A stretch of DNA of 64,000 bases from Octopus vulgaris (lineage: Eukaryota). The notes below the pieces were generated by a model. That model saw only the letters and a list, made by a program, of their open reading frames with translations. It was not told the origin of the DNA and made no database searches. A program made the translations under genes and the position numbers. This document shows positions 8,050 to 12,904 of this stretch, piece by piece (positions within the stretch are counted from its first letter, which is position 1; each line of letters opens with the position of its first letter). Location of the stretch: contig OX597825.1 in NCBI GenBank assembly GCA_951406725.2, forward strand, positions 51,894,001 to 51,958,000. Reading direction: 5' to 3'.

Positions 8050-9290
8050 AAAATAATCCAATTTAATTTAGTTAGTATATAGTTAACATGTTCTTTAATC
8101 TCAGTGCCCCCTTATTATATACCAGTTAAATCCAATTGATCAATCTCCATAGAAACCATATAATAAGTTAATATTTAGATAAATAATAAGTAAATAAAAT
8201 ATTAAACTATTTCTTTGTAATTTTTTTTCGCTGCTCTATTTGTCCAACTCATGCTAGCATGGAAAGCGGACGCTAAACGGTGATGATGATTGTGGTAAAA
8301 TTTGGTATATACTCAAAATATTCAAGGAAGTTTTATCCTTTTGTTATAATTTCATTCTTAATAATCTTCTTGATTACCCTGAATTTTAACTTTATACAAT
8401 AAGACAATATTGTTTGAAATGATCATTAGAAATTACTTGATTTATCTCTTTCTTAAATGGGTCTACCCTCCTGATCTTAGTATTTATAAGGGACTTTATA
8501 TAAATAACCTTTCTAAACAAGTACCACTAAGAAACTATAAATATCATGTAGGGAGTAACAATAATAACTTCTTAAACCTATAATATAACCCTTAGTTTTA
8601 AAAAAATTAGTGTAAAATATGATTGTTCCATGACTTAAATATTCCTTTAGCTAATACCAGATATCAGTCTTTTATTGATATTAGTTAAATAAGTAAATAT
8701 ATAATTTTTAGTCTAATATATTTTGAATTATTATACATTTTCTATAAAACTTCTCTATTGGTGTTAATAAGCTACAAATATTTTACCATAGTATTAGTAA
8801 TTAAGCCATTTTATTTCCTTTCCAATGGTATTCTGCCCTACTTGATTATTTTATTTTGTTTCTTTATAATTTTATAATTAGTCTTTATTTATTTATAAAA
8901 TTAATCTAATTTTTGTATCTCTATAAATTCATACTTATCTTATATAAATCTATACTGGTATATTCACTACTTATAAAAAAAACTGCTTAGATTATAACTT
9001 TATTAATATATAATTAGCATGTTCCTTTACCTCAATACTCTTTTATTAATACCAGTATATACAAATTAATCAATATTCACAGATACCATCTGATGAGTTA
9101 GTATTTAAGTGTACAATATGTATAAATATTAAACTATTTCTGGATAATTTATTTTCCTCCTTCTATTGTGGTAAAAGTTTTGTATATACTCAAAAGTATT
9201 CATAAATTTATATCCTTTTGTTATAATATTCTTCGGAATAACCCTAAACTTTAACTGTATACAATATAGCAACATTCTTTAAAATATTTA
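8050..9290. repeat. Diverged direct duplication (~8050-8420 vs ~8990-9290) within an unclassified AT-rich element
   Basis: Shared blocks catgttc.ttta.ctca, aatattaaactatttct, tgtggtaaaa.tt.gtatatactcaaaa, tatccttttgttataat. Confidence 0.75.
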
Positions 9291-10539
9291 ACTATAGTTT
9301 CTGGCCACAGCCCGTGAGCTGAAACTAGATAAAATAAAATTTTTTAAAAATATTACTACATGGTAAGACTTCCCCTGTTTCATTATCAATGGTCTGGTAG
9401 TGGGTGACCCTCTTAATTGTCAGCTAACATCTTGTTTTAAGTTATCCTTTACCAAACCTCATGATATTGCATCTAATAAATTTTGATTTTTATGACTATA
9501 CCAACTATGATTTCTGTCTACTCCTAACAAATACTGCCCCTTTGTTCTCTCAGCCTTAGATATACAAGGATTTGATAAACTAGTATATAAACTAAAACTG
9601 ACACCCCCCACTCCTCCCCAAAATCAGTGACAGGCAGAGTCTGTAACAATGTATATCTTCTTGATACCTTTGTAGCTTCTAAGCTGGAGTGAAGGCAGCA
9701 TGTTCTTTGTGTATCTCCTTATATTCTTGGAGATTTTAGGTATAATTATACTAATGTGTCCATCTGTTCTAATTTAATTAAATTCTATGTCTTTGTGCAG
9801 CTGAGGATTGCTCTGCATATTAAATTGATGTAATGATTGCATTGTTCAATTAAATGGAGTTGCATGAAACGATCGTATTGCATTACCTCTGGATATCCTT
9901 GTTGCTTGTTTTGATTTTAATCACTTTACTTTGAAATTGTATGGATAATACCATACTAAATACTGGTGCCTCAACTTATGTACCATATTCATATGAATTT
10001 ATATATATATATATATATATACATACCAGCCATAGAATTACATAAATCCAAAGATGTAGAACAGTTATTATAGTGGAGTGGGCTGCAACATAGCAGCCAT
10101 ATACTATAATGAGGCCTTCGCTGCCAGCAGATTTAAGGACCACAACTCCTACATGCTGGAACCTAACAGCTGTGGAAGGAAGCACCATAGAAATATGATT
10201 TGGTTTGTCTCCCCACCACTGCCCTAACACAGTAACCCCCATAGGTAGACTCTTCCTTAAACTGATAGATAAACCTTTCACTAGCTCACACAGGTACGGT
10301 CACATATTCAACAGACACAATATTAGGGTCTCGTTGAGCTGCACCCCAATATAAAGAGCATCTTGGTTAGCTCCTCTAGGATGCAGTCAGAGGAAGGTTG
10401 TTCATGCAGGATCCAAAGCAGTTTCCCAGTAGGAGGTCACTGAAAAACCAAAGGAGTCATATATCAAGCTGAGATTCTAACATGACATGCCTTTAATGCC
10501 GGCAGAAACAATGATGGCCGTGGATATGAGAACGGAGTC

Positions 10540-10880
10540 AGTAACACAGTCACCATAGCCACCACTGCCATCATGGATGGCAGCATTGCTAACAACAACT
10601 GTGGAATCGCCAACAGAAGTGACATCGCAACCATCACCAGCCTTACAAATAGCTCCCCTGACGTCCACGATGCCAAACCTATCAACCACTATAGTAGTAG
10701 TAGCAGAAGGAACAGGTTCTGTTCCAGTAACACAGCCACCATAGCCACTATGGAACAGCAACAGTGGCATCACCAACAGCAGTGACATCACCACCACCTC
10801 CACCACCAGCCTTACCTATAGCTTCCCCAACATCCATGATGCCAAGTCCTTTGGCCACTATAGTAGTAGTAGCAGAGGCA
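10540..10880 (+). repeat. ~186-bp tandem duplication in the Ser/Thr/Asn-rich insert
   Basis: agtaacacag.caccatagccac...accagccttac...gatgccaa...ccactatagtagtagtagcaga occurs at ~10540 and ~10727. Confidence 0.85.
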
Positions 10881-11852
10881 GCAGATCCAGATCCATCACT
10901 GGCTATAATGGCAACAACAACAGAACCAACAGAGGTGATAGTACTACCGTTGCAACCACCACATCCTCCACCAGCAATAGCACCAGGAGCCCCGACTCCT
11001 TCAACACCAACACCGGTGGAAGCACCAGCAGCAGCAACAAACACAACAACAACAGCCACAGCAGCACTAGCAGCAACAATGACTACACCACAGGTAGCAT
11101 GTGCAGGGACAAGAATATGACCGGCTCCAACACCAGCACCAACAGCAACAGCCCCTACTCCAGTAGCGACAACACCACTGACATCACTAGTGGCAGCAAC
11201 AGCAGAACCTACAACAGCAACAGGCACAACAACAGCAGCAACAGGCAGAGCGGCAATGGTAGCAGCAACAACAGTACCAACAACAGCACCTACATCAGCA
11301 ACAGGCGCAACGACATCACATGCTCACAGAAGTACATGGAGCACTCTAGGAACTCTCTCAAACAGTGTATTTCCAAACATCTGTCCTTCAGAGTCCTGGA
11401 AAGGAGATACGTGACATCACTGGTCAGCCATGTCTGGCAATTATGAGATGAGATTCCATACTCGATCACATAGAAAATACTTGAGAACCCAGGCCCCTAC
11501 ATGAACAGGATGAATCAGTGCAAGTTATGCATTGCTGAGCGCACGAGAATCCTTAAAGATTCGCTCATGCCAGCGGGAATCCTGAACTCCAAGATGGAGA
11601 TTTTTCAGACCATGCCTGCATTTTAGAAAATTACTGCTGGCTTTTGGAACCCACATGATGGCACCACAGCTGGAAACCAATAGCCAATACCAAAGGAAGA
11701 CAATCGTTTACCTTCATGGTGCTTTGTAACCACAAGATGGTAGCATGGCTGAAGATCAATGGACAATGGCAAAGGGAGATAATCACCTAGGGTTTTACCA
11801 TTAAAAACGAGGCTTTCCCCTGCATATTTTAAACAGGCCACACACCAGCAGT

Positions 11853-11923
11853 GTTTGGGGTCTGAAGATACACGGTAAGGCTAAACCCCAAGTGAGCAAG
11901 AAACCCAGAGTAACCCCATAAAC
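11853..11923 (+). ncRNA. Hammerhead ribozyme motif, degenerate (Naiad pLTR)
   Basis: Stem I GTTT-GGGGT / ACCCC-AT-AAAC; CTGAAGA 11862-11868; GAAA 11900-11903; GTA cleavage triplet 11910-11912; stem II poorly paired. Confidence 0.6.
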
Positions 11924-11943
11924 CAGCTAACCACACAATAATG

Positions 11944-12016
<73 letters not shown>

Positions 12017-12384: not shown

Positions 12385-12780
12385 TCATCTGGTTGAGTTT
12401 ACTCAAACATTCTTAACCAATACATGCCATTCTTCTTGGTCCAGCATTAGTTGAGAGAAGTCTTCAAGGAGACGTCTAGTGTCTTTCATGAATTGATCTG
12501 CATACATTGCATTCATATGACCAGCTGAAGTACAACAATGCTTTGACGTCCAAAGCAGTAGATCACTTACCAGCCCTTGTTTGGCTCACTAGAAATGTTC
12601 CATAAAGTGTAAGTACCTTTTCCAGATAACATTTAAAACAGGTAGATCTCCATACAACTGTTTCTTGGTGGGACATGTTCTCCAAGATATGTTTAAGACT
12701 GCTCTTAATATTTGAGTGTAGGTTCCATCTAGCTTGGATTCTAGTGTTTTTGATAAGCATCCAGACAGTTGCCTCATATC
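12385..12780 (-). mobile_element. RTE-clade LINE 3' fragment
   Basis: LDGTYTQILRAVLNISWRTCPTKKQLYGDLP...LHFMEH. Confidence 0.8.
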
Positions 12781-12904
12781 AAAAGACTAACTCTAAGGTT
12801 GTTTGACAGGGTTGAATTCATATTAACATTCAGTTTGTTATGGGTCAATCACACTTTGGCTGTCTGAGATTTTACATTCTCTTCAGTTGAGACTGTCTCA
12901 GAAC

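Follow-up and report, generated by a model that had tools for sequence, protein, structure and literature searches.

A long in-frame Ser/Asn/Thr-rich insert within the GIY-YIG hairpin of a Hydra-clade Penelope-like element lineage of octopus, probably carried as a tolerated disordered loop

Introduction

The stretch of Octopus vulgaris DNA analysed here (contig OX597825.1, 64,000 nucleotides; hereafter the window) contains the remains of a GIY-YIG endonuclease of which the two signature strands lie far apart. The GIY strand (GVIYQAEI at 10453, Tyr codon at 10462) and the YIG strand (KYME at 11330, Tyr codon at 11333) are separated by 871 nt, i.e. 290 codons, in agreement with the distance of about 870 bp given in an earlier, sequence-only reading of the locus. 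That reading left two possibilities for the active family, namely a nuclease with a large disordered loop inside its core fold or a tract that is spliced out; it would be refuted if the tract were a one-off insertion or microsatellite expansion in this dead copy. Here we ask which of these explains the spacing, and whether the nuclease kept working with it.

Anatomy and decay of the window copy

The element in the window is a decayed, 5'-truncated copy of a Penelope-like element (PLE) of the Hydra clade. The layout, as derived from longer copies, consists of a reverse transcriptase (RT) upstream, a C-terminal GIY-YIG endonuclease, a hammerhead at the 3' side and a TA target. The following features were distinguished (window positions):

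10000..10025, no strand: (TA)n microsatellite, the 5' flank of the insertion, from reading of the sequence
10030..10088, minus strand: short inverted segment derived from the 3' terminus of the element itself, an inverted end piece of Penelope type, from opposite-strand matches in L004, L013 and L017
10092..10398, plus strand: end of the RT thumb and linker, 5'-truncated; the RT core is absent from this copy
10399..10443, plus strand: Hydra-type CxCX5C linker, in this copy with the third Cys changed to Phe and the fourth to TGA
10453..10479, plus strand: GIY strand GVIYQAEIL with the Tyr codon at 10462, from six-frame reading
10480..11332, plus strand: Ser/Asn/Thr-rich in-frame loop tract of about 284 codons, with private decay (TGA at 10483, frameshift after 10753)
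10539..10895, plus strand: tandem duplication within the tract (units 10539-10724 and 10725-about 10895), also present in L020, L028 and L042
11333..11660, plus strand: decayed catalytic half of the endonuclease (YIG strand as YME, Arg helix, CxxC at 11519, Glu, Asn at 11585, CxH at 11613)
11857..11917, plus strand: 3' UTR motif of a type I hammerhead ribozyme (CTGAAGA at 11862, GAAA at 11900)
11918..11958, plus strand: 3' terminus of the element, then (TA)n

The reverse complement of 10030..10088 looks like the 3' end of the family, and the RT was found upstream in the longer copies L063, L064, L065 and L071.

The tract had been described as AGC/AAC/ACC-rich, tandemly duplicated and readable apart from one TGA at 10483 and one frameshift. 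The duplication (a unit of 186 nt in the window, and of 186 and 198 nt where measurable among L020, L028 and L042) and both lesions are indeed there, and the lesions are private to this copy. The TGA at 10483-10485 is CGA (encoding Arg) in L003 and L039 and another sense codon in further copies, and we therefore take it as ordinary decay; the same sense codons rule out selenocysteine at this position. The only frameshift in the tract is a private 26-nt deletion after 10753, in the second duplication unit. Outside the tract the copy has decayed as well, with a TGA at 10441, the G of YIG changed to E, the catalytic R changed to C, more stops and a frameshift near 11605, and in total it diverges by 11% from the majority of its own family. 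The tract is not an assembly artefact, since an independent DNA contig spans 10035-11413 including the tract (19 letters differ, next to an 84-nt deletion and a 6-nt insertion). The locus is also partly matched by contigs under two other organism labels.

Two neighbouring features were noted in passing. Within an AT-rich stretch, positions 8290-8420 and 9160-9280 hold a diverged direct repeat with units of about 110 nt (seen by eye), and the minus strand of 12400-12800 holds an open stretch, which we take to resemble the end of an RTE-type LINE protein.

Classification within the Hydra clade

The element had been called Naiad-type, an assignment that we replaced. In the parts of Craig et al. 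(2021; PMC8557442) used here, the Hydra clade is marked by a C-terminal endonuclease, RWK and DKT motifs, a CxCX5C linker, CxxC and CxH motifs without CCHH, a hammerhead, (TA)n targets, the lack of an IFD and a generally short length (<3 kb), and Naiads by an N-terminal endonuclease, CCHH, an IFD and no canonical hammerhead. With the Naiads the octopus element shares a GIY-YIG endonuclease, a Cys-rich linker before GIY, a (TA)n preference and the occurrence in octopus, whereas none of the other Naiad marks fits. A Naiad identity is rejected by the upstream RT, the lack of CCHH and the presence of a hammerhead; the Naiad-defining pair is likewise absent from the majorities of families A, B and C.

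The Hydra marks were found in the longer copies and the subfamily majorities. The RT lies 5' of the endonuclease in L063, L064, L065, L071, L145, L147, L149-L151 and L158 (a single intact long-loop ORF was not seen), with RWK and DKT in L063 and DKT in L149. A CxCX5C linker precedes GIY in all subfamily majorities. CCHH is lacking, and the conserved E and N are flanked by CxxC and CxH. The RT appears to lack an IFD, the RT3-RT4 spacing of the majority being that of the Hydra rows in Fig. S1 of PMC8557442 (compared by eye). Of the 42 family 3' ends, 30 and 37 show the hammerhead core boxes, with stems present; this is a motif assigned by sequence, and an Rfam scan of 9 loci gave no match at the gathering level, only weak microsatellite-driven ones. 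(TA)n was seen at the flanks of the window copy and at many family 3' ends, an observation that comes without a control count. By these marks in the sequence the element is a member of the Hydra clade. With the tract added to 2.5 kb, a long-loop element would be expected to pass 3 kb.

The closest member is Hydra-1_Obim of O. bimaculoides, which has the same order of RT and GIY-YIG, RWK/DKT, CxCX5C, hammerhead and (TA)n, and an S/T/N-rich loop of its own, 14 residues longer than that of its neighbours in Fig. S7 (PMC8557442). The distance between the two tyrosines is 27 codons in Hydra-1_Obim and 13-14 in five other Hydra consensus sequences (PMC8557442), against 69-298 in the octopus lineage. 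The text and metadata of PMC8557442 consulted here do not comment on the Hydra-1_Obim loop. A Hydra-1_Obim-like family with a 27-codon loop (family O; equated with the published element by eye, the published sequence being outside the tree) is present in the O. vulgaris genome too (L154). It groups with the octopus long-loop families at 100/99 (bootstrap not fully settled); the grouping of the long-loop families without it is weak (82/58 in that tree, 0.91 in a 212-row tree).

The genome also contains a young Hydra-clade family with an 18-codon loop, an intact 708-residue ORF and YKDD as RT motif, represented by L141 (G000:C8:30169960-30172110) and L142 (G000:C29:2400293-2402443). Well over 100 of the 150 scored RT matches are near-identical members of it, often in inverted pairs; it is the youngest Hydra family in this genome.

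The tract across the lineage

Copies were collected by DNA searches of the same genome with the two endonuclease halves (40 of 439 and 40 of 152 candidates were scored) and by a protein search in which 150 of 17,385 loose candidates were scored, the latter figure giving no measure of copy number. In the first 130 loci, both motif anchors lie on one strand in 35 distinct copies; 34 of these show 207-1251 nt between the tyrosines (with some anchors extrapolated) and the 35th is mis-anchored. Six further copies have 413-1055 nt. The earlier reading had asked whether other copies hold the tract, and they do: it is 207-1251 nt long in 40 of the 41 lineage copies with both anchors, the remaining one being the mis-anchored copy. 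Of the 34 tracts, 13 carry later insertions and one an upstream duplication; without these 14, the remaining 20 measure 69-298 codons from Tyr to Tyr.

The later insertions (in L020, L028, L063, L068, L072, L073, L077, L078, L084, L109, L113, L126 and L128) are mostly short interspersed repeats, which suggests that the tract is a preferred insertion target.

By their tracts the copies sort into families A and A0 (with the window copy among them), B, B2, B3, C, D and E, in agreement with the tree of the catalytic half. The AGC/AAC/ACC-rich composition noted in the window was confirmed; S+T+N makes up 60-65% in the family majorities. The closest named protein, XP_014771448.1 of O. bimaculoides (P0001), bears a family A tract; this RefSeq 'uncharacterized protein DDB_G0287625-like' is a fragment of the element. 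Family E (L149 and L153), the most divergent long-loop family, has a 138-codon loop that is T/D/I/S-rich and less repetitive. In a single copy, L026 (L026:1-1400), expansion at the 3' side of the tract has produced a long array of 21-nt tandem repeats, and the tract of L039 contains a poly-Ser run.

Five copies stay in frame from GIY to YIG with no shift, over 69, 89, 117, 140 and 200 codons, and the family B majority is open across 201 codons. A single apparent shift, in each case at an ambiguous column, is seen in the majorities of A and of C, and those of B2 and B3 (three copies each) show two shifts that cancel. A triplet-phase model, trained on three of the five shift-free copies, places the start of the tract in the nuclease frame for 29 of 34 copies and its end for 25 of 34, most exceptions having an extrapolated anchor or a shift adjoining a motif. 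The 20 insertion-free tracts contain 26 phase switches in 11.1 kb (2.3 per kb), which matches the frameshift rate of the coding C-terminal half (55 in 28.6 kb, 1.9 per kb), and the switches are positioned differently from copy to copy.

A length variation in multiples of three had been put forward as a further sign of coding. Such lengths were found in 88 of 146 private tract indels, and in both indels of the independent contig. They arise among private changes, so an in-frame change in length needs no selection. More telling is the phase, which is held across 550-900 nt in several families. The copies lie 5-21% from their own majorities, no young long-loop copy was seen and no intact full-length long-loop copy was found among those examined; the master ORF is for these reasons inferred. 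The series is most simply read as stepwise growth of the tract out of a 27-codon loop of the Hydra-1_Obim kind, through slippage of triplets and duplications that kept the frame.

Selection on the nuclease and its predicted structure

Between subfamily majorities dN/dS was 0.05-0.17 for the catalytic half (21 pairs), 0.08-0.42 for the thumb, linker and GIY strand (15 pairs) and 0.02-0.30 for the RT (14 unsaturated of 15 pairs, one pair being saturated). Copies compared with their own majority, the control, gave 0.28-0.59 and not 1, so the simple count under-reads dN/dS; the values between families lie below even this control. Judged from these ratios, the RT and both endonuclease halves are under purifying selection across the tract-bearing subfamilies. 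The Tyr, Tyr and Gly of the hairpin and the Arg, His, Glu and Asn form near-invariant columns, decayed in the window copy, and the A0, A, B, B2, B3, C and D majorities retain Y, G, R, H, E and N. In the tract the ratio of nonsynonymous to synonymous changes is the same for shared and private ones (139/47 and 355/116, p=0.92), a weak test that was marginal for the C-flank control (18/16 and 62/23, p=0.051) and blank for the N-flank control (p=0.77), and that gives no sign of amino-acid constraint on the tract. It is likely that the long-loop enzyme kept working with its predicted loop.

A fold from a single sequence was unusable (pLDDT 39). The model considered here is based on an alignment of 108 sequences, mostly short-loop relatives, with as query a copy with 89-codon spacing in which one stop was entered as X. 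It contains 134 residues with pLDDT >= 90, strands at 37-47 and 126-137 and a loop below 50. The top match with VIA-align was the catalytic domain of I-TevI (Z 9.2, rmsd 2.5, 89/92 residues), followed by T4 endonuclease II (Z 7.8) and UvrC (Z 5.9), proteins that share the predicted fold of GIY-YIG hairpin, Arg helix, linker strand and Glu helix (as far as described in PMC3045582). Foldseek with the model gave no match, a sequence search of the PDB with the alignment gave 0 matches and a Pfam scan of 6 proteins gave no relevant family. In the model the I-TevI fold is kept and the low-confidence loop is extruded from the tip of the hairpin; this points to compatibility with the fold, not to activity. 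In characterised homing endonucleases 8-11 residues separate the triplets (comparison in PMC2248736), against the 69-298 codons between the tyrosines in the octopus lineage.

Taken together, the family-wide, in-frame and length-variable tract and the predicted structure favour the large disordered loop, the first of the two original possibilities. We consider it probable that a Hydra lineage of octopus bore an in-frame Ser/Asn/Thr-rich insert of 70-300 codons within its GIY-YIG domain, translated as a tolerated disordered loop while the nuclease went on cutting. A single RT-EN protein would nick (TA)n and prime reverse transcription, like other EN+ Penelope elements; the loop would lengthen through slippage at AAC/AGC/ACC triplets and in-frame duplications during copying; and selection would remove only those versions that lose the frame or gain a stop. 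The two strands would still form the hairpin, with the loop hanging off its tip, as in the predicted model.

A possible function of the loop and a second long-loop clade

Instead of being tolerated, the loop might have a job, for instance tethering the RT-EN particle to chromatin or RNA via Arg-rich patches, or condensing the particle, which we regard as unlikely but worth setting out, as long loops at the same site arose in two separate clades. Among relatives of a short-loop endonuclease (the best 150 of 7524, a ranking that favours short loops) 112 could be parsed, of which 111 have 11-23 residues in the hairpin and one has 77. A search with the 77-residue-loop protein returned, among 109 parsed of the listed matches, 13 with T/N/P/Q/R-rich loops of 66-111 residues and one more with a longer, unparsed loop, some of them in ORFs of 674-768 residues. 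In the 212-row tree, twelve rows with such loops come together in a second long-loop clade (0.95) that is separate from the octopus group. Its proteins (P0152, P0156-P0168, P0274, P0275 and P0278) have uninterrupted ORFs and the loop at the same hairpin site. In three other Hydra-type proteins (P0009, P0023 and P0097) low-complexity inserts are located just before the CxC linker instead. A search for homologues longer than the 245-residue long-loop endonuclease itself turned up none among 3381 candidates, which is weak evidence.

The pattern [YHR]xLR, chosen after seeing the data, occurs in 7 of 14 second-clade loops (against a mean of 0.33 after shuffling, with 0 of 2000 shuffles reaching this count). 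It resembles the nucleosome anchor of foamy virus Gag, where the chromatin-binding sequence around Tyr537 and Arg540 is given an acidic-patch role (PMC12125541, in the part used here), a resemblance in sequence that serves as a lead only. An Arg-rich block near the start of the octopus loop persists in families A, B, B2 and B3, and the loop was kept through synonymous divergence that reaches saturation (family E versus A-D). Nevertheless, none of the five in-frame octopus loops holds the [YHR]xLR motif, shared and private changes in the tract have equal N/S, the length varies fourfold with a different sequence in family E, and the youngest Hydra family here makes do with 18 codons. We are similarly doubtful about the wider view that the hairpin tip is a recurrent PLE site for functional long disordered arms, reached twice independently, with the motif of the second clade tethering the integration machinery to chromatin out of the core of the nuclease.

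Splicing, supply in trans and a one-off insertion

That the tract is an intron, kept in the genomic copies and spliced from the translated mRNA, is very unlikely. PLEs can retain introns (the legend of Fig. 1 in PMC8557442 marks conserved ones), most copies have a GT in the Val codon after the GIY motif and family A has a CAG just ahead of the YIG motif. Yet these do not amount to splice features: a polypyrimidine tract is absent (in copies of A-D, T accounts for 3-15% of the final 60 nt), the AG is not conserved as YAG in B, B2, B3 and C, and splicing at the candidate sites would reduce the spacing of the tyrosines to about 5 codons, while all 112 parsed relatives have at least 11. Moreover, the triplet phase tracks the nuclease frame through the tract from end to end. 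A search with a short-loop pattern gave 131 matches, the 100 listed being mostly another family (a CCHH-type PLE) and otherwise other or chance matches, and 0 of 10 pattern loci checked by blastn were short-loop copies of the long-loop lineage, a check with little power where copies are old. Four sequencing runs, guessed to be RNA, contain one contig that spans both halves and retains the tract, and none of their joints excises it; this evidence is weak, as transcripts would come from dead copies. The window copy was not covered in a further check of one such run. The bulk of the short-loop pattern matches (L161-L180) are a GIY-YIG PLE family with Cys and His in a short hairpin (CCHH-like).

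Hardly more credible is that the insert killed the nuclease and that short-loop Hydra relatives moved the elements in trans. Such relatives do exist in the same genome (27 codons in L154, 18 in L141/L142), but both endonuclease halves appear to be under purifying selection with Y, G, R, H, E and N kept in A0, A, B, B2, B3, C and D, and the RT is under selection too.

A one-off insertion or microsatellite expansion in the dead window copy can be dismissed as next to impossible, for although some post-insertion expansion did take place (the 21-nt array of L026, the poly-Ser run of L039), non-repetitive tract segments and the internal duplication are common to copies on different contigs and such segments recur in an O. 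bimaculoides protein.

Implications

Large inserts in the GIY-YIG domain of PLEs have been reported before: Chlamys endonucleases have a PHD finger between H and E, Chlamys-1_rSub has tandem repeats downstream of the GIY-YIG motif and Terminon endonucleases have 'large unique insertions' (PMC8557442). These elements are alike in tolerating big inserts, but in the material of PMC8557442 used here the inserts come after YIG and none of the rows of Fig. S2 shows a long insertion within the hairpin. As the sequence-only reading had supposed for PLEs, no description of a long insert within the GIY-YIG hairpin was found in the literature searched; a long-loop consensus may already exist in Repbase or Dfam entries, in figures, in subscription journals or in the supplements of PMC13282606. 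The hairpins of GIY-YIG homing endonucleases are compared in PMC2248736, PMC3045582 and PMC1564403; the O. vulgaris repeat annotation of PMC13282606 and bioRxiv 10.64898/2026.07.22.740005 do not treat a hairpin insert in the parts consulted. What appears to be new is thus the position of the long insert, within the hairpin.

The GIY-YIG hairpin is usually viewed as a compact signature of 8-11 residues, and these lineages indicate that a nuclease can stay under selection when 70-300 residues are inserted in it. That low-complexity segments grow in surface loops is well known in general, and the graded natural series of 13, 18, 27, about 138 and 190-300 codons offers a view of such growth inside a working enzyme. 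The hairpin inserts would explain why elements of this kind are missed or mis-annotated (no Pfam match, and one fragment carried in RefSeq as an 'uncharacterized protein'). The hairpin would be a place where inserted domains are tolerated, in a fold that is used for engineered nucleases, and the intact ORFs of the second clade make the choice between tolerance and function directly testable.
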